Virus record (IMG/VR): IMGVR_UViG_2744054628_000002
Location: 1 to 11,990 of that record
Strand: one strand, 5' to 3'
Origin: a virus
Taxonomy: Duplodnaviria > Heunggongvirae > Uroviricota > Caudoviricetes
Length of the DNA: 11,990 bases
Below the pieces are notes generated by a model that was not told the DNA's origin, made no database searches, and saw nothing but the letters and a program-made list of their open reading frames with translations. Position numbers and translations under genes: made by a program. This document shows, one piece after another, positions 2,971 to 10,748 of this stretch (position 1 is the first letter of the stretch; each line of letters starts with the position of its first letter).

Positions 2971-3145
2971 GGCTGCGGGTGCTTGAGGCTATCTGTCTCA
3001 GGCATGAACACCAAAGGCAGATAGAGAAAAGCCCCAGTTAACATTACGCGTCCTGCAAGACGCTTAACATTAATCTGAGGCTCAATCTATGAACGGCAAA
3101 TCTAGGTTAGCCTCTTACGTGCCGAAAGGCAAGGAGAAGCAGGCT

Positions 3146-3301
3146 ATGAAGCAGCAAAAGGCGATGTTAATCGCCCTGATCGTCATCTGTTTAACCGTCA
3201 TAGTGACGGCACTGGTAACGAGGAAAGACCTCTGCGAGGTACGAATCCGAACCGGCCAGACGGAGGTCGCTGTCTTCACAGCTTACGAACCTGAGGAGTA
3301 A
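3146..3301 (+). CDS. hok: Hok-family type I toxin (small membrane host-killing peptide), 51 aa
   Basis: Translation MKQQKAMLIALIVICLTVIVTALVTRKDLCEVRIRTGQTEVAVFTAYEPEE matches the Hok/Gef/RelF(HokD) family as I recall it: single TM helix and conserved C-terminal AVFxAYE. ATG 3146; AAGGAG at 3131-3136. The ORF-track start 3089 is an in-frame upstream ATG. Confidence 0.9.
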   Translation: MKQQKAMLIALIVICLTVIVTALVTRKDLCEVRIRTGQTEVAVFTAYEPEE

Positions 3302-4809: not shown

Positions 4810-5184
4810 ATGCGTATAGAGTTTGTTTTGCCTTACCCGCCGACGGTGAACACCTACTGGCGACGTCGTGGCAGCACATATTTTGTATCAAAAGCCGGTG
4901 AGCGTTATCGCCGTGATGTGGCGCTTATTGTTCGCCAGCAGCGACTGAAATTAAATCTGTCCGGAAGGCTGGCGATCAGGATTATTGTGGAGCCACCGGA
5001 TAAGCGTCGTCGCGACCTGGACAATATCCTGAAAGCACCGCTGGATGCGCTGACGCATGCGGGAGTGTTAATGGACGATGAGCAGTTTGATGAAATCAAT
5101 ATCGTTCGTGGTCAGCCAGTATCTGGTGGACGTCTGGGGGTGAAGATTTACCCCATAATGCATGAAGAGCAGGTCAAAAAATGA
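4810..5184 (+). CDS. rusA: RusA-family Holliday junction resolvase (endodeoxyribonuclease), 124 aa
   Basis: Conserved RusA signatures: N-terminal PPTVNTYW and catalytic-region RRRDLDN. AAGGGG RBS 4797-4802. Stop TGA 5182-5184 overlaps the Q start. Confidence 0.93.
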   Translation: MRIEFVLPYPPTVNTYWRRRGSTYFVSKAGERYRRDVALIVRQQRLKLNLSGRLAIRIIVEPPDKRRRDLDNILKAPLDALTHAGVLMDDEQFDEINIVRGQPVSGGRLGVKIYPIMHEEQVKK

Positions 5185-6002
5185 AACTGGAAGATTTACC
5201 GAAATACTACTCCCCAAAATCCCCTTGCCTGACCGATGCATCGGCCTCAACGTCAAAAGATGCGCTGAGTATCACTGATGTGATGGCCGCGCAGGGCATG
5301 ACACAGAATCGGGCTGAGATGGGGTTTTCTGCGTTCCTGGGGAAAATGGGCATCAGTATGAATGACAGGGCGCGGGCAACAGAATTACTGGCAGATTATG
5401 CACTCAGTCGGTGCGATCGTGTGGCGGCGTTGAGAAAACTTCCGGCAGAAATAAAACCGGTAGTGATGCGCATTATGGCTTCGTACGCTTTTGAGGATTA
5501 TGCCCGCAGCGCAGCGAGTAAAAAGCAGTGCCCTTGTTGCTATGGGGAAAAATTTATTGAAAGCGTAGTTTTTACAAACAAGGTCCAGTATCCGGATGGT
5601 AAGCCGCCGGTATGGGCAAAGTGTACGAAAGGTGTGTATCCGTCTTACTGGGAAGAATGGAAAAAAGTCAGGGAGGTGGTAAAAGTTGCCTGTCCGGAGT
5701 GTGGCGGAAAGGGTGAGGTTTCCACCGCCTGTAAGGATTGCCGTGGGCGTGGTGTCGCCATTCACCGTGAAGAGTCGGTAAAACGTGGTATGCCTGTTAT
5801 CAGAGACTGCCAGCGTTGTGGTGGTCGTGGCTATGAAAGACTACCATCAACGGAGGTATTTAATGCTATATGCGAGGTGACAAACCAGATAACACGCGCG
5901 TCATGGGAAAAAACAGTTAAGAAATTCTATGATGCGCTGGTGACCCGGTTTGATATTGAAGAAGCATGGGCTGAGCGGCAGTTAAAAAAGGTAACTAGGT
6001 AA
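5181..6002 (+). CDS. Q: late-gene antitermination protein Q (lambda Q family) with an expanded Cys-rich zinc-binding region, 273 aa
   Basis: N-terminus (KYYSPKSP...DVMAAQGM) and C-terminus (SWEKTVKKFYDALV...VTR) parallel lambda Q as recalled; central CPECGGKG, CKDCRGRG and CQRCGGRG repeats. A pR'-like promoter follows immediately. Confidence 0.88.
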   Translation: MKLEDLPKYYSPKSPCLTDASASTSKDALSITDVMAAQGMTQNRAEMGFSAFLGKMGISMNDRARATELLADYALSRCDRVAALRKLPAEIKPVVMRIMASYAFEDYARSAASKKQCPCCYGEKFIESVVFTNKVQYPDGKPPVWAKCTKGVYPSYWEEWKKVREVVKVACPECGGKGEVSTACKDCRGRGVAIHREESVKRGMPVIRDCQRCGGRGYERLPSTEVFNAICEVTNQITRASWEKTVKKFYDALVTRFDIEEAWAERQLKKVTR

Positions 6003-6007
6003 CAAGG

Positions 6008-6047
6008 TTGATTTTTCCGGAATCTGTGGTAAATTCGTCATAACGAT
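6008..6047 (+). promoter_or_regulatory. pR'-like late promoter with qut-like initial transcribed region
   Basis: -35 TTGATT (6008-6013), 16-nt spacer, TGg extension (6027-6029), -10 TAAATT (6030-6035); AACGATGGG at 6042-6050 resembles the lambda pR' pause-inducing element (AACGATGGG) as I recall it. Sits directly after Q. Confidence 0.5.
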
Positions 6048-6082
6048 GGGCGTTTTATGCCTGGCGTTAGAAGAGTTTCTAC

Positions 6083-6106
6083 AACCCGCCGCTGAGCGGG
6101 TTTTTT
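6083..6106 (+). terminator. tR'-like intrinsic terminator downstream of the late promoter
   Basis: AACCCGC (6083-6089), 6-nt loop, GCGGGTT (6096-6102) running into TTTTTT (6101-6106), then ATT. Confidence 0.6.
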
Positions 6107-6145
6107 ATTGCGAAATTAATTACGGACCGTTATTATTCTGCTCCC

Positions 6146-6221
6146 GGCCCTTTAGCTCAGTGGTGAGAGCGAGCGACTCATAATCGCCAGGTCGCTGGTT
6201 CAAATCCAGCAAGGGCCACCA
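6146..6221 (+). tRNA. tRNA with CAT anticodon (Met or lysidine-type Ile2), 76 nt, CCA encoded; probably the ileX/ileZ-like tRNA that lambdoid and Stx phages carry after Q
   Basis: Hand-folded cloverleaf: acceptor GGCCCTT/AAGGGCC, D-arm GCTC-AGTGGTGA-GAGC, anticodon loop CTCATAA (CAT at 6179-6181), T-arm GCTGG-TTCAAAT-CCAGC, discriminator A, CCA 6219-6221. Close to E. coli ileX as recalled. Confidence 0.85.
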
Positions 6222-6321
6222 TCACAAACCGCCATTAGCTTATCAGGAAGAGCAGACGACACGATAACAGGGTTGTTGGTGCGGGGGCGGGTCCCCGATG
6301 GCGGTCCATTATCGGTATTCA

Positions 6322-6366
6322 GCGTTGTTAGCTCAGCCGGACAGAGCAATTGCCTTCTAAGCAGCT
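6322..6366 (+). tRNA. tRNA-Arg(TCT)-like 5' portion (acceptor 5' strand, D-arm, anticodon arm); 3' half degenerate, so probably a tRNA pseudogene or fragment
   Basis: GCGTTGT-TA-GCTCAGCCGGACAGAGC-A-ATTGC-CTTCTAA-GCAGC gives a canonical D-arm and a TCT anticodon loop, but I find no T-arm (GGTTGCACTCC in place of GGTTCGAATCC) and no 3' strand complementary to GCGTTGT. Confidence 0.35.
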
Positions 6367-6731
6367 GTGGTTGCACTCCTGTTGTTTCTGGTGGTGATGG
6401 TGGACTTCAGCAGCCGGATAATGTCGGTGCTGTCTGATGGTGTTTTGGTGGCGGGTGTGTGGTTGTTGCTTTCCCGTTGCTGAAAAAGAAAGCATCAGGC
6501 GATTAGCAGGGTATCAGTTACCCGTTGAAATTTTTAAATACCTCACAATTCCACAGCTTGATGATTGTCTGGCTGCCGGAGAATTTGTTAAAAATTACAT
6601 CGCATGGTGAATCCCCCTGTGCGGAGGGGTAATCAGCGAGTAGGTATATGGGATAATCGCGGATTCAGGTGCTGGTACTGAATTCACCGGGAGGCACCCG
6701 GCACCATGCAATGGCACATAGCGCCACTCTC

Positions 6732-6759
6732 CAGCCCCTCTCCGGAGGGGCTGTTTATA
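6732..6759 (+). terminator. GC-rich hairpin followed by T-rich tract; candidate intrinsic terminator
   Basis: 9-bp stem CAGCCCCTC / GAGGGGCTG with TCCG loop (6732-6753), then TTTATATTGATTTTG. U-tract is interrupted, so strength uncertain. Confidence 0.4.
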
Positions 6760-6787
6760 TTGATTTTGTCAGATGTGAGTAAACTCC

Positions 6788-7123
6788 TTATGGACTTTGT
6801 TGTTTTAGTCCATAAGGACATATTTGCAGAATGCAACGGTTATTAAAGCATTCATTCAATACGTTATCTGTATTTGTAGGGCATTCCTGGCTGTTTTTGA
6901 TTAAATTCCAGAATGTTTTATTGAATGGTACTACGTTGTAAATGGTTACAGGTAGCACTTTGTTATTGAGCATGATGCCTGTGTGAGTCAGTGTAAATAT
7001 ACTTTCAGGAGGTAAGAAAGCATCCGATTGATACCAGATTATTAATTTTATTTTACTCCATATGACTGAAAAAGATATTCCGCATGATGGCTGGATAACT
7101 GTATCAATCACAATCCACTTCAT
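6788..7123 (-). CDS. hypothetical Cys-containing protein in AT-rich moron, 111 aa, no recognisable family
   Basis: ATG at 7123 (- strand) preceded by AGGA with ~6-nt spacer; stop at 6788-6790. Opposite strand to all flanking phage genes, AT-rich, and sits in the Q-to-S cargo slot. No signal peptide evident. Confidence 0.6.
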
Positions 7124-7382
7124 TTACTTTCCTTGTTTATGCCTTGCTGGTGATGTTCTGAAAAGTATAAATGATATTTTTGAATTAAACCATAGAGCAG
7201 AATTATTTTTCTGATGTTGTTTATTGTTTATTTAAATACAGGGTGGTTTATATCTCGTCTTGTAGTTTATCCATGCATATCTGCTTGATAATCAGGTTTT
7301 TATTTAAGGTATGGTTTTGTGTTTTTTCTGTATTACATGTCAGGTATTTTAAAGAATTATTTTTCAGATGGTGGAAAGAACC

Positions 7383-7571
7383 ATGGCATTTAAACACTAT
7401 GATGTTGTCAGGGCGGCGCCGCCGTCAGATCTTGCGGAAAAGCTGACACATAAACTGAAAGAGGGCTGGCAGCCGTTTGGTAGTCCGGTGGCCATAACCC
7501 CTTATACCCTGATGCAGGCGATTGCAGCAGAAGGTGATGTGGTGGTCAGCGGTGCAACTGAGCCGGAGTGA
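7383..7571 (+). CDS. small conserved lambdoid-prophage protein found upstream of lysis genes (possibly DUF1737-like); function unknown
   Basis: ORF 7368..7571; internal ATG 7383 has a better purine-rich RBS (GGTGGAAAGA). N-terminus MAFKHYDVVRAAPPSDLAEKL resembles small proteins I recall at this position; family name is tentative. Confidence 0.5.
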   Translation: MAFKHYDVVRAAPPSDLAEKLTHKLKEGWQPFGSPVAITPYTLMQAIAAEGDVVVSGATEPE

Positions 7572-7814
7572 TACTACGTCATCGTACTGGCCCGGCATTC
7601 CAGGCCATAAAAGACAGTCTGGCAGTGGGACTAAATGCACTGACGCTGACGGATATTACCAAAAATGCAACGTATGGCGTTGAGATAGAAAGTCTGGTGC
7701 TGGAGATAAATGCACCGGCATCATCATAAAAAGTGAGCCAGTCAAATGGAAGGTATCGTTAAACTCACCGGTAGTGTCAGTGGGTCGTCTGAGACGCTTG
7801 CATGAGTTATCAGA

Positions 7815-7843
7815 GCCATCAGTAGTTAACTGGTGGCTTTTTT
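7815..7843 (+). terminator. intrinsic terminator immediately upstream of the holin gene
   Basis: 8-bp stem GCCATCAG / CTGGTGGC (one G-T wobble), 7-nt loop, then TTTTTT (7838-7843). Lies inside the GTG-initiated extension of ORF 7774..8094, supporting the ATG 7879 start. Confidence 0.55.
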
Positions 7844-7878
7844 ATTGTTGTCAGCTTCCGGATAACGGGAGACGGGGT

Positions 7879-8094
7879 ATGGACCAGATGGAAAAAATCA
7901 CAACAGGTGTGTCATACACCACGTCAGCGGTGGGAACGGGCTACTGGTTCCTGCAGTTGCTGGACAGGGTTTCCCCGTCTCAGTGGGCGGCAATAGGCGT
8001 GCTGGGGAGTCTGCTGTTTGGGCTGCTGACATATCTGACTAACCTGTATTTCAAAATCAGAGAGGACCGTCGTAAGGCTGCACGGGGAGAGTAA
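7879..8094 (+). CDS. S: class II holin / pinholin (phage 21 S-like), 71 aa, with dual-start motif Met1...Met4
   Basis: [15 protein letters not shown]...[40 protein letters not shown]: two TM segments plus charged tail, similar to S21 as recalled. GGGAGA RBS 7867-7872, 6-nt spacer. Confidence 0.85.
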
Positions 8095-8098
8095 TTCA

Positions 8099-8449
8099 AT
8101 GACTCAAAACTATGAACTGATTGTGAAAGGGATCCGCAATTTTGAGAATAAAGTTACGGTAACTTTAGCGTTACGGGACAAAAAACGCTTTGACGGTGAA
8201 ATTTTTGACCTGGACATCTCGCTGGACCGTGTTGAAGGTGCCGCGCTGGAGTTTTATGAGGCAGCAGCCAGAATGAGCATCAGACAGGTCTTCCTGGATG
8301 TTGCTGCCGGGTTATGTGAAGGGGATGAGCAGTCGCCGGAAAAGCGCCCCGTAATTTTAGAGGCGCAGAATGTATGGATAACCTACAAAGGAAAGCTACC
8401 GGGAAGAATTACTGGTTCTCTGAAGACTCCTCCGGAATCACAACCTTAA
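8099..8449 (+). CDS. hypothetical protein between holin and endolysin (YdfR-like by position and size; possibly DUF1327), 116 aa
   Basis: ATG 8099 follows holin stop TAA 8092-8094 by 4 nt. Positional match to ydfR between essQ and rrrQ in Qin, from memory. No catalytic motif recognised. Confidence 0.65.
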   Translation: MTQNYELIVKGIRNFENKVTVTLALRDKKRFDGEIFDLDISLDRVEGAALEFYEAAARMSIRQVFLDVAAGLCEGDEQSPEKRPVILEAQNVWITYKGKLPGRITGSLKTPPESQP

Positions 8450-8512
8450 GTCACTGACCGGAACAGATAAACCTGTCCGTGGGCAGAAACCGATAAATCC
8501 TGATAAATATCC

Positions 8513-9046
8513 ATGAACGCAAAAATCAGATACGGCCTGTCGGCTGCCGTTCTGGCACTGATTGCCGTCGGTGCGCCCGCGCCTGATATTCTCGACCAGT
8601 TTCTGGATGAAAAAGAAGGTAACCACACAACGGCATACCGCGATGGGTCCGGCATCTGGACCATCTGTCGGGGTGCCACGATGGTGGATGGAAAACCCGT
8701 TTTTCCCGGTATGAAACTGTCGAAGGAAAAATGCGACCAGGTCAACGCCATTGAGCGTGATAAGGCGCTGGCATGGGTGGAGCGCAATATTAAAGTACTA
8801 CTGACCGAACCACAAAAAGCGGGTATAGCGTCATTCTGTCCCTATAACATTGGCCCCGGTAAGTGTTTCCCGTCGACGTTTTATAAGCGGCTGAATGCCG
8901 GTGATCGTAAGGGCGCATGCGAGGCGATTCGCTGGTGGATAAAAGATGGTGGGCGCGATTGCCGCATACGTTCAAATAACTGCTATGGACAGGTTATTCG
9001 TCGTGACCAGGAAAGCGCATTAGCCTGTTGGGGGATAGAGCAGTGA
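8513..9046 (+). CDS. R: SAR endolysin (T4-lysozyme-like muramidase, phage 21 R / RrrQ-like), 177 aa
   Basis: Gly/Ala-rich hydrophobic N-terminal signal-anchor-release segment ([16 protein letters not shown]), then E-x8-D-x5-T catalytic pattern ([16 protein letters not shown]) and C-terminal ALACWG, as in R21-type lysozymes. Confidence 0.9.
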
Positions 9047-9504
9047 GCAGAGTCGCCGCGATTATTTATGCTTTGGTTATCTGCATCATCGTCTGCCTGT
9101 CGTGGGCGGTCAATCATTACCGTGATAACGCCATCGCCTACAAAGAACAGCGTGATAAAAAAGTCAGTGAGCTGAAGCAGGCGATCGCCACTATCGCTGA
9201 CATGCAGCAGCGTCAGCGTGATGTTGCTGCGCTCGATGCAAAATACACGAGGGAGTTAGCTGATGCGAAAGCTGAAAATGATGCTCTGCGTGATGATGTT
9301 GCCGCTGGTCGTCGTCGGTTGCACATCAAAGCAGTCTGTCAGTCAGTGCGTGAAGCCACCACCGCCTCCGGCGTGGATAATGCAGCCACCCCCCGACTGG
9401 CAGACACCGCTGAACGGGATTATTTCACCCTCAGAGAGAGGCTGATCACTATGCAAAAACAACTGGAAGGAACCCAGAAGTATATTAATGAGCAGTGCAG
9501 ATAG
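9043..9504 (+). CDS. Rz: i-spanin Rz, 153 aa
   Basis: GTG 9043 overlaps the R stop (TGA 9044-9046) and follows GGGGGA. Product [31 protein letters not shown]... is near-identical to lambda Rz as recalled. The ORF-track start 9028 is TTG inside R. Confidence 0.9.
9263..9445 (+). CDS. Rz1: o-spanin Rz1 lipoprotein, 60 aa, embedded in the +1 frame of Rz
   Basis: [24 protein letters not shown]...[29 protein letters not shown]: lipobox VVGC, proline-rich; matches lambda Rz1 as recalled. GGGAG RBS 9251-9255. Confidence 0.9.
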
Positions 9505-9535: not shown

Positions 9536-9829
9536 TTATTGTGAGCAATACACACGCGCTTCCAGTGGAGTATAAATGCCTAAAGTAATAAAACCGAGAA
9601 ATCCATTTACGAATGTTTGCTGGGTTTCTGTTTTAACAACATTTTCTGCGCCGCCACAAATTTTGGCTGCATCAACAGTTTTCTCCTGTCCAATTCCCGA
9701 AACGAAGAAATGATGGGTGATGGTTTCCTTTGGTGTTACTGCTGTCGGTTTGTTTCCAACAGTAAACGTCTGTTGAGCACATCCTGTAATAAGCATTGCC
9801 AGAGCGGCAGAAAACAACATTTTTTTCAT
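9536..9829 (-). CDS. bor: Bor lipoprotein (serum-resistance / Iss family), 97 aa
   Basis: From ATG at 9829 (- strand): MKKMLFSAALAMLITGCAQQTFTV...LEARVYCSQ with lipobox ITGC; near-identical to lambda Bor as recalled. The ORF-track start at 9877 is an upstream extension. Convergent with Rz. Confidence 0.9.
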   Translation of the reverse strand: MKKMLFSAALAMLITGCAQQTFTVGNKPTAVTPKETITHHFFVSGIGQEKTVDAAKICGGAENVVKTETQQTFVNGFLGFITLGIYTPLEARVYCSQ

Positions 9830-10212
9830 CTTATTATCCTGCATTGTTAAAAACGGCAGAATCCTATGTGACAACAATTAAACGATAGTTAAATGGATTG
9901 ATGAAAATTAAAACTATATAGGTGGATGCTCAGCCTATCGGAGGTAGTCAGGATTTGAATGTCAGTCTGTTGTCGGCATTCTGGCAATGCAATTTGGATA
10001 AAGCGGGGATTAAAAAGATAGAGGCGAGCCGGTCAGGTAGAAATGAATCAGGCTCAAAGTGAAGCGGAAAAGGTCTGTGGCACAAGCTGATGCAGCCATA
10101 ATTACAGCCTGATGATTTGTGGAATGAAACATGTTGAACCTCCTTAATTGATGTTATTCGAGTGATGAAGGCATTCTGTCCTTCTATAGTGTCCAGTAAA
10201 TCAAACAGGAAA

Positions 10213-10234
10213 CTTGTCCAACGTGTTGGACAAG
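10213..10234. repeat. perfect 10-bp inverted repeat with 2-bp spacer (CTTGTCCAAC GT GTTGGACAAG), candidate operator
   Basis: Arms are exact reverse complements; additional TGTCC-containing half-site-like copies lie just upstream (~10177-10196). About 90 bp upstream of the G start. Confidence 0.5.
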
Positions 10235-10325
10235 CCTCTCCATTAGTGAGTTGTATTGATCACAACTCTACAAAGAATTCATTACTGGGTAGATGAAAAT
10301 AGTTTCACTATGAATGGAGGAGGCT

Positions 10326-10748
10326 ATGTCGGTGGCTTCTTCATTGGAGTACCGTCAGTTAATGAGGATAGATGTGATGACTAAAAATATCCGTAATCTG
10401 GCACTGGCAGCGATGTCGGGGTTTCGCCATAAAACTGTTGATGTGCCTGAATGGGAAGGGGCAACGGTTGTATTACGGGAACCTTCTGCAGAAGCCTGGT
10501 TGCGCTGGCAGGAGATCGTTAAAGCAAAAGATGATGAGACACCGTTATCCGTTGCGGAGCTCGCCCGCCGAAATCTGGAAGCGGATGTTGAACTGTTCAT
10601 CGATGTTCTGTGTGATACCGGACTGCAACCTGTATTTTCAGTGGATGATCGTGAACAGGTGATTGCCGTGTATGGCCCGGTGCATGCGCGGCTTCTTCGG
10701 CAGTCTCTGGAACTGATCAGTGATGCCGGCGAGGTTAAAAAAAAGTAG
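10326..10748 (+). CDS. G: tail assembly chaperone G, 140 aa
   Basis: ATG 10326 with GGAGG RBS (10316-10320); ORF ends EVKKK-TAG with the slippery heptamer A_AAA_AAG (10739-10745) just before the stop. The ORF-track start 10314 is an upstream in-frame ATG without a good RBS. Confidence 0.75.
   Translation: MSVASSLEYRQLMRIDVMTKNIRNLALAAMSGFRHKTVDVPEWEGATVVLREPSAEAWLRWQEIVKAKDDETPLSVAELARRNLEADVELFIDVLCDTGLQPVFSVDDREQVIAVYGPVHARLLRQSLELISDAGEVKKK

Follow-up and report, generated by a model that had tools for sequence, protein, structure and literature searches.

An iraL gene, very probably encoding an RssB anti-adaptor, as an opposite-strand AT-rich moron between Q and the lysis genes of a lambdoid prophage

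The window analysed here is the whole stretch of 11,990 nucleotides of the virus record IMGVR_UViG_2744054628_000002. Its late region was found to contain an AT-rich cassette with an opposite-strand gene, flanked by a small RNA gene on the left and a remnant of nanS-p on the right. The features of the locus, in window coordinates, are as follows.

5181-6002: Q (PF03589) of the lambdoid late region, preceded by DUF968 and RusA
6146-6221: a single tRNA, between Q and iraL
6572-6762, + strand: STnc100-family sRNA gene (Rfam RF02076, 132 bits against a gathering cut-off of 47, full model 1-206)
6732-6753: GC-rich hairpin CAGCCCCTC-TCCG-GAGGGGCTG from the terminator scan, 35 nt beyond the iraL stop
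6763-7367: AT-rich cassette, GC 0.317, between the STnc100 terminator and the DUF1737 start
6788-7123, - strand: iraL coding sequence (111 amino acids plus stop) for the probable RssB anti-adaptor, from the ORF call and identity to CFT073 iraL
6791-6889, - strand: C-terminal tail, residues 79-111, C81-P-x10-C92-x4-C97-x4-C102-P-Y-G, from family alignments
6890-7123, - strand: N-terminal domain, residues 1-78, a predicted beta-barrel plus helix contacting RssB, from the 8TWD_A match and the AF2 model
7124-7156, - strand: 5' UTR of 33 nt, with a putative transcription start site (TSS) at 7156 by homology to the RACE-mapped CFT073 end
7128-7134, - strand: Shine-Dalgarno AAGGAAA, read from the sequence, ending 4 nt before the iraL ATG
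7164-7169, - strand: -10 hexamer TATACT, identical in CFT073, probably at positions -13 to -8 relative to the TSS
7184-7191, - strand: -35 region GGTTTAAT (CFT073: GGTTTACAT), from the alignment
7368-7571: DUF1737 remnant of 67 amino acids, nanS-p being cut down to its DUF1737 part
9536-9877, - strand: bor/iss, the second - strand gene, right of the lysis genes

The open reading frame at 6788..7123 of the - strand was found to contain an ATG start and 111 codons in the ORF listing, and the Cys-containing stretch that had been quoted from the sequence alone corresponded to residues 81-105. Five Cys residues were present in the protein, namely C14, C81, C92, C97 and C102. About 50 clusters of the IraL family were found at E<=1e-10 across Enterobacteriaceae, and the ORF is therefore not a chance one. 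Within the cassette, GC was 0.342 in the coding sequence and 0.279 in the upstream part (7124-7367), against 0.506 in the left flank (6000-6762) and 0.509 in the right flank (7368-9500). The sequence-only reading, which had described an AT-rich 111-codon ORF on the - strand with its own ribosome-binding site, was thus borne out in its coordinates, in its base composition (0.317 against about 0.51) and in the AAGGAAA motif. Its further statement that this is the only - strand gene held inside the interval from Q to the lysis genes but not for the late region overall, since bor/iss is also on the - strand. To the right of the DUF1737 remnant, a P21-type holin was found followed by the presence of DUF1327, lysozyme and Rz. 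The prophage was decayed, with the tail chaperones G and T directly after bor and with the truncated nanS-p.

The protein was found to be identical to IraL of CFT073 (c1429 / WP_000871291.1) at 110 of 111 amino acids, the sole change being I98 in the window in place of T98, and the two coding sequences were identical at 335 of 336 nucleotides. IraL was first described in 2014 in uropathogenic E. coli CFT073 by Hryckowian et al. in mBio (PMC4045071), as an IraM paralogue 58.9% identical to K-12 IraM. The gene was defined in that work by a nucleotide identity to CFT073 iraL of 95% or more along the entire coding sequence, and the window gene lies within this definition (335/336 nt). Compared with K-12 IraM, 67 of the 111 amino acids were identical in the window protein (60%), and nucleotide identity to K-12 iraM was 70.9%. 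The NCBIfam model NF007393, 'anti-adapter protein IraM', was matched at 162.6 bits (cut-off 121, E=3.1e-48), the alignment covering protein residues 1-110 and model positions 1-113 of 114, and PDB entry 8TWD_A (IraM 1-78) was matched by phmmer at E=9.4e-32. Neither the window protein nor K-12 IraM matched any Pfam family by hmmscan, even at E<=10, and the identification was therefore made through RefSeq annotation, NCBIfam and PDB. The protein had been taken for an unrecognised one belonging to no family, a view which the NF007393, CFT073 IraL and 8TWD_A matches overturn. The ORF is, with high probability, iraL, a horizontally carried paralogue of iraM which would encode an RssB anti-adaptor and would be expressed as a moron from the prophage.

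The distribution of the gene was examined in 5,426 complete E. coli genomes. A megablast search with positions 6700-7400 matched 2,221 of them, the gene there being annotated as 'anti-adapter protein IraM', and by blastn iraL was present at 90% identity or more, again with RefSeq annotation, in about 1,440. The best match was 60-80% identical in 3,330 genomes (blastn) and represented iraM together with other clades. The gene iraL is already known and routinely annotated, and its location explicitly as a phage moron is the point added here.

The N-terminal domain was modelled with AF2 from 49 family sequences, with a mean pLDDT of 83 and values of 87-96 over residues 1-78. In Foldseek, a 15-sequence AF2 model matched 8twd_A with TMt 0.83 and rmsd 1.5 A, followed by PmrD (4hn7, 2jso, 2rqx) as the next best matches. 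Structure prediction, proposed earlier as a check on the protein, thereby returned the IraM fold, and the N-terminal part is modelled as an antiparallel beta-barrel with a flanking hairpin and helix, as in IraM(1-78). Three clusters of contacts (I-III) are listed for the IraM-RssB structure (PMC10844676), and 10 of the 14 IraM contact residues were found to be identical in the window protein. Cluster I, which faces alpha4-beta5-alpha5 of the RssB N-terminal domain, contained I4, I6, W22, K26 and I42, all five identical, whereas of the nine residues in clusters II and III, which face the linker and the RssB C-terminal domain, four were substituted (T13S, L75I, H63N and I64V). In two-hybrid assays IraL binds the N-terminal receiver domain of RssB only, whereas IraM binds both domains (PMC4045071). 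The kept cluster I and the altered C-terminal-domain and linker contacts would fit such N-terminal-only binding.

The C-terminal tail was found to contain the most conserved positions of the family. HMMER searches against 1.84 billion representative proteins gave 91 matches at E<=1e-3 and 48 at E<=1e-10, and the named members, all called IraM, came from Salmonella, Citrobacter, Enterobacter, Kosakonia, Intestinirhabdus and Dryocola. In 49 intact members with identity down to 20%, only W72, C81, C97 and C102 were invariant, followed by C92 and P103 with conservation of at least 90%; in a 32-sequence alignment of the tail all four tail Cys residues were invariant, and C14 was not conserved in the family. 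The attention drawn earlier to the Cys-rich tail was well placed, as its four C-terminal Cys are among the most conserved family positions. The confidence of the AF2 model in the tail rose from pLDDT below 40 with 15 sequences to 58-69 with 49 sequences. The crystallised IraM(1-78) omits the tail, the full-length protein having been proteolysed, and the tail has been described as less conserved and flexible, truncated IraM still binding RssB (PMC10844676). A tail profile gave only non-significant matches in the PDB (E 0.1-0.26), both to CCCH zinc-finger proteins, and no paper studying this C-terminal tail was found in the searchable literature. It is tentatively suggested, as an idea that is rather less probable than its negation, that the tail might be a Cys4 metal-binding (zinc-knuckle-like) or redox-sensing module which could control the stability or activity of IraL and IraM; a coupling of transcripts through STnc100, discussed below, belongs in second place to the same tentative proposal.

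The 5' end of the CFT073 iraL mRNA was mapped by 5' RACE (PMC4045071), and the sequence of this mapped end, ACATCACCAGCAAGGCATAAACAAGGAAA, was found to be present identically in the window from 7156 downstream on the - strand. The -35 region was found to differ from CFT073 by a 1-bp deletion in which the C is missing, so that TTTACA becomes TTTAAT and the spacer is shortened; TTTACA is the only good -35-like hexamer and is destroyed in the window allele. The longer upstream stretch reads GGTTTACATTC in CFT073 against GGTTTAATTC in the window. The other changes relative to CFT073 were G>A at -1 and CC>GT directly before the ATG, and identity from -100 to the ATG was about 96-97%, the reference criterion being at least 96% with the -10, the -35 and the TSS. 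Over positions 7110-7260 the window allele is a minority one, with 166 of the 1,446 iraL-positive genomes at 99% identity or more and 1,254 in the 95-99% band, and the listed matches of that band spanned 152 bases against 151, with the extra base present. The window -35 allele was also found in JJ1886, B20123 and AF44, and the whole promoter allele was identical to the JJ1886 copy at 2.168 Mb. Strain JJ1886 carries two iraL copies, of which iraL2 has a -35 point mutation, its expression being left uncertain by the authors (PMC4045071); the window allele probably corresponds to iraL2, judging from the sequence.

A consensus promoter scan did not call the RACE-supported iraL promoter, and the other weak sites which it called were no more frequent than those of shuffled sequence. 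No similarity was found between the K-12 iraM promoter and the iraL promoter, the homology stopping at the start codon, and such unrelated upstream DNA is in keeping with different regulation of the two genes. IraM is PhoP-regulated, and for this reason a PhoP box was searched for. A candidate was found as a 1-mismatch direct repeat, TGTTTATTGTTTATTTA, at 7218-7234 (-62 to -78 relative to the TSS). The surrounding DNA is AT-rich, and at least one such match was given by 34 of 200 shuffles; the candidate was set aside as regulatory evidence in view of this rate and is kept as a weak lead only.

At the 3' side, the STnc100 gene was found to be convergent with iraL, ending at the hairpin and 25 nt from the iraL stop. 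On the + strand, where a T tract comes after it, the hairpin at 6732-6753 has the form of a canonical intrinsic terminator; in the RNA of the - strand the hairpin still folds (z = -2.67) but lacks a U tract, and no canonical terminator for iraL was found on the - strand by the terminator scan and RNA folding. In RefSeq a pseudo-CDS called 'partial hypothetical protein' is placed over the STnc100 gene. The convergent pairing of STnc100 with an iraM-like gene was also found in the Stx2a phage EH2201 and in E. albertii. It could be that iraL travels with this prophage sRNA as a fixed convergent pair, an arrangement which could couple the two transcripts.

The same slot was found to be occupied in other prophages. 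In CFT073, iraL has the corresponding place in the lambdoid prophage that adjoins potB, a location named the 'potB genomic island' (PMC4045071), and a syntenic iraL position was found in a JJ1886 prophage. Phage records sharing the flanks numbered 354, only 43 of them covering at least 80% of the query, and a locus search with a close-family alignment recovered only close relatives. By tblastn, IraL-like genes were found in 46 phage records, four of them at least 99% identical and 41 in the 60-80% band. In phage 933W about 215 bp (GC 0.45) separate the STnc100-like element from the DUF1737/NanS start, against the 605-bp cassette of the window. The proposal that the ORF is a cargo moron in the Q-to-S slot stands well with these data, the slot being filled in CFT073, JJ1886 and Stx phages and empty in 933W-type phages, and the recurrence at the same position for which a search had been suggested was found in other prophages and in Stx2 phages. 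As expected of a moron, the gene varies in its presence among related phages, with conserved phage genes on both sides, and its GC differs from that of its flanks (0.317 against 0.506 and 0.509). Its own promoter is probable by homology to the RACE-mapped one, but is a variant of it, and expression has been shown for the CFT073 allele. These observations support the view of iraL as an opposite-strand, self-contained AT-rich moron in a lambdoid prophage.

The function reported for IraL comes from CFT073, in which deletion of iraL lowered log-phase sigma-S and shortened its half-life from about 5 to about 2.5 min, followed by restoration of sigma-S stability when iraL was re-inserted with its own promoter, and RssB was co-purified with IraL (PMC4045071). 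Later studies of CFT073 in the literature detected iraL mRNA, with a rise at 37 degrees C and in a fur mutant. [quoted passage not shown] RssB would be sequestered or remodelled in this way and sigma-S (RpoS) would not be handed to ClpXP; the stabilised sigma-S would prime the general stress regulon, in the case of IraL even in exponential growth. The gene would act as an autonomous unit on the strand opposite to the late operon, having a sigma-70 promoter and a Shine-Dalgarno of its own, and its place in an AT-rich insert between Q, the tRNA and STnc100 on one side and the lysis cassette on the other would mark it as a moron for lysogenic conversion, with expression from the prophage. Binding of RssB and stabilisation of sigma-S, shown for the CFT073 protein one residue apart, are probably properties of the window allele as well, and this allele is presumably transcribed with its altered -35 region. 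The effect of I98 in place of T98 was counted as a caveat against direct transfer from CFT073 IraL.

Two readings which give the protein another function were weighed. A PmrD-like connector with a target other than RssB among the response regulators (it might, for instance, protect phospho-PmrA) would agree with the fold match to 4hn7 (TMt 0.69) and also to 2jso and 2rqx, with the precomputed PF11183 (PmrD) label borne by homologues, and with the resemblance of the IraM fold to PmrD only (PMC10844676). However, the sequence identity to PmrD was 13%, the current Pfam hmmscan was empty at E<=10, RssB binding and an effect on sigma-S stability are known for the CFT073 protein, which is 99% identical, and the contacts to the RssB N-terminal domain were conserved, which makes such a connector very improbable. 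A novel Cys-rich toxin or a phage-exclusion (defence) protein would suit a slot in which lambdoid phages hold toxins and other cargo, and an AT-rich gene with its own promoter, but the whole family is annotated as IraM, its characterised members are anti-adaptors, and IraL is constitutive in growing CFT073 with no toxicity reported (PMC4045071); this reading is given an even smaller chance than the connector. A search of PADLOC-DB 2.0 with the window protein gave no family at E<=0.01, and the defence or exclusion reading was dropped on this result. The role in toxicity or phage exclusion for which assays had been proposed from the sequence is thus unsupported, PADLOC being empty and the function of the family being sigma-S stabilisation.

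The remaining alternative accepts the gene and takes the window allele for a poorly expressed or silent copy, with little sigma-S input in its host. It concerns activity and not identity and is compatible with the iraL reading. In its favour are the deleted C of TTTACA, the minority status of the allele (at least 99% identity in 166 of 1,446 genomes), the doubt of the authors about the JJ1886 iraL2 -35 mutant (PMC4045071), and the decay of the prophage itself, in which bor leads into G/T and nanS-p is truncated. The upstream DNA, with 28% GC, may further be bound by H-NS. The iraM gene is silenced by H-NS, and the same is conceivable for the AT-rich iraL DNA. On the other hand, the ORF, the Shine-Dalgarno, the -10 hexamer and the TSS sequence were intact, many strains of unrelated origin were found to retain the allele (seawater, human, bird and the ST131 strain JJ1886), and the A-rich upstream DNA could serve as an UP element. 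Weighing both sides, a silent or weak copy is considered a real possibility, though clearly the less probable state of the allele.

The reading of the locus as a prophage-borne iraL would mean that control over RpoS proteolysis is passed from strain to strain by temperate phages, with this gene as a moron in the stx slot. Some STEC strains have high RpoS in log phase, for which the 2014 survey gave no explanation (PMC4045071), and the paralogue of Stx phages which adjoins stx2 may have escaped that survey, which used iraL/iraM-specific PCR and a BLAST criterion of at least 95%. The conserved Cys4 tail is a testable feature in a family used as a model of regulated proteolysis. Residual value attaches to the altered promoter, to the conserved Cys4 tail, to the pairing with STnc100 and to the paralogue of Stx phages.

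Compared with known systems, the closest likeness was found to CFT073 iraL, with which the window shares the slot order Q - tRNA - DUF3927 - STnc100 region - iraL(-) - DUF1737 remnant - holin. The CFT073 prophage was found to contain three tRNAs and IS200 after Q, whereas the window contained one tRNA and no IS200, and head genes have been lost from the window prophage by an internal deletion.

K-12 IraM (YcgW/ElbA, b1160) shares NF007393, the five Cys positions, the fold and the contacts to the RssB N-terminal domain with the window protein, whereas its gene lies beside the e14 attachment site at icd without an STnc100 neighbour. Mg2+ starvation is the inducing condition for IraM, which contacts both domains of RssB; IraL works in log phase and its binding is confined to the N-terminal domain (PMC4045071, PMC10844676).

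In Stx2c and some Stx2a phages (2851, 1717, Stx2a_WGPS and EH2201), a paralogue 74.5% identical to the window protein was found, the tblastn matches in this group ranging over 72.7-74.5% identity. It was found to lie opposite to the late operon, convergent with STnc100, directly after stx2B and before nanS-p. In EH2201 (Stx2a) the order was Q, three tRNAs, stx2A, stx2B and STnc100, followed by the presence of the opposite-strand iraM-like gene, nanS-p and the holin. The Stx-phage gene differs in its length (107-110 amino acids), in its 65% identity to K-12 IraM and in its 70% nucleotide identity over the cassette, and it forms a third clade. It is usually unannotated in phage records, and no paper characterising it was found in the literature.

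The Salmonella member of the family, which we take to be RssC, and the other enterobacterial proteins called 'IraM' were found to share a length of about 110-125 amino acids, W72 and the tail C-x10-C-x4-5-C-x4-CP with the window protein, and differ from it in an overall identity of 20-41%. PmrD (PF11183; 4HN7, 2JSO, 2RQX) is likewise a small beta-barrel plus helix which binds the receiver domain of a response regulator, but it shares 13% identity, contains no Cys4 tail, has PmrA as its target, and its Pfam model was not matched by the window protein. IraL would act in the manner of a connector, although it is classed outside PmrD. With the classical lambdoid morons (bor/iss, lom and stx), iraL shares the organisation as an independent unit of atypical composition between conserved phage genes which benefits the lysogen, whereas IraL would act on the regulatory proteolysis of the host and not on the cell surface or a eukaryotic host.

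The gene for the RssB anti-adaptor IraL (111 aa; - strand) was found to be adjoined on its downstream side by a complete small RNA gene.

6572-6762, + strand, complete gene for an sRNA of the STnc100 family (Rfam RF02076; 132 bits, gathering score 47)

The STnc100 gene is convergent with iraL; it terminates at the hairpin 6732-6753, and its end lies 25 nt from the iraL stop codon. In RefSeq genomes the position of STnc100 is overlain by a pseudo-CDS annotated as a 'partial hypothetical protein'. An iraL-like gene converging with STnc100 was also found in the Stx2a phage EH2201 and in Escherichia albertii (L006), and no STnc100 adjoined the paralogue iraM in its K-12 neighbourhood. A 2026 preprint on Pas sRNAs, which treats STnc100, contained neither iraL nor iraM.

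The iraL-like gene of phage EH2201 belongs to a third IraM/IraL clade, with 74.5% amino acid identity to IraL and 65% to K-12 IraM.

6001-6324 of EH2201 (L004), third-clade IraM/IraL gene, directly after stx2B and on the opposite strand to it

This clade was found in the same position and orientation relative to stx2B in Stx2c phages (Stx2c_*) and some Stx2a phages, phages 2851 and 1717 among the carriers. Its gene was mostly left unannotated, and no characterisation of the clade was found in a literature search. PCR specific for iraL or iraM may have overlooked it. Some STEC strains show a high and unexplained log-phase RpoS level (PMC4045071), on which the Stx-phage clade might bear.

Upstream of iraL, a PhoP-box-like direct repeat was found 62-78 nt from the inferred transcription start site.

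7218-7234, + strand, TGTTTATTGTTTATTTA, one mismatch to KGTTTA-N5-KGTTTA

The repeat was kept in the uropathogenic strain CFT073. It was not significant, as at least one such match was found in 34 of 200 shuffles and the local DNA is AT-rich.

An AT-rich two-gene cassette with a GC content of 0.29-0.42 was found at 399-2528, flanked by DUF977 and a hok/sok locus whose Hok homologues are annotated hokD in RefSeq.

399-1511, + strand, cassette gene 1 (370 aa)
1527-2528, + strand, cassette gene 2 (333 aa)
2977-3151 and 3089-3301, + strand, hok/sok type I toxin-antitoxin locus (Rfam sok RF01794, 110 bits; Hok PF01848)

The cassette may be a second cargo, because the prophages of B20123 and JJ1886 carry other small genes in its place. 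All of its Pfam matches were below threshold (HEPN_RES_NTD1, 22.1 bits, cut-off 27.4; GNAT, 19.9 bits, cut-off 20.7) and PADLOC returned no match for it; the two genes are possibly a defence-like or toxin-antitoxin-like pair.

The late region contained a gene remnant, followed by a junction at which bor/iss meets the tail genes.

7368-7571, + strand, DUF1737 ORF (67 aa; partial in RefSeq)
9536-9877, - strand, bor/iss
about 9880-10310, junction of bor/iss and tail chaperone G
10314-10748, tail chaperone G

The lysis cassette and bor were followed directly by the tail assembly chaperones G and T (PF06222, PF06223), and no terminase, portal or head genes were found between bor and chaperone G; the prophage is therefore defective and has lost a large internal segment. 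Of the genomes in the collection, AF44 was the closest, matching 91% of the window at 99.9%; its junction is different and leads into a truncated tail-tip gene. The DUF1737 ORF is what is left of the N-terminus of a sialate esterase of the NanS-p type (SASA); other iraL-bearing prophages contained either the complete esterase or a DUF6645 gene in its place.

A single tRNA gene was found after Q.

6146-6221, + strand, tRNA, assigned by ARAGORN as Met (CAT)

It is labelled tRNA-Ile in RefSeq homologues, and we take it to be ileZ-like, with a CAT anticodon that reads Ile once lysidine-modified. The CFT073 site contained Ile-Arg-Arg together with an IS200 and that of JJ1886 contained Ile-Arg, whereas a single tRNA was found in the window; the stretch 6104-6363 still matched the tRNA cluster of CFT073 by BLAST (90.8%).
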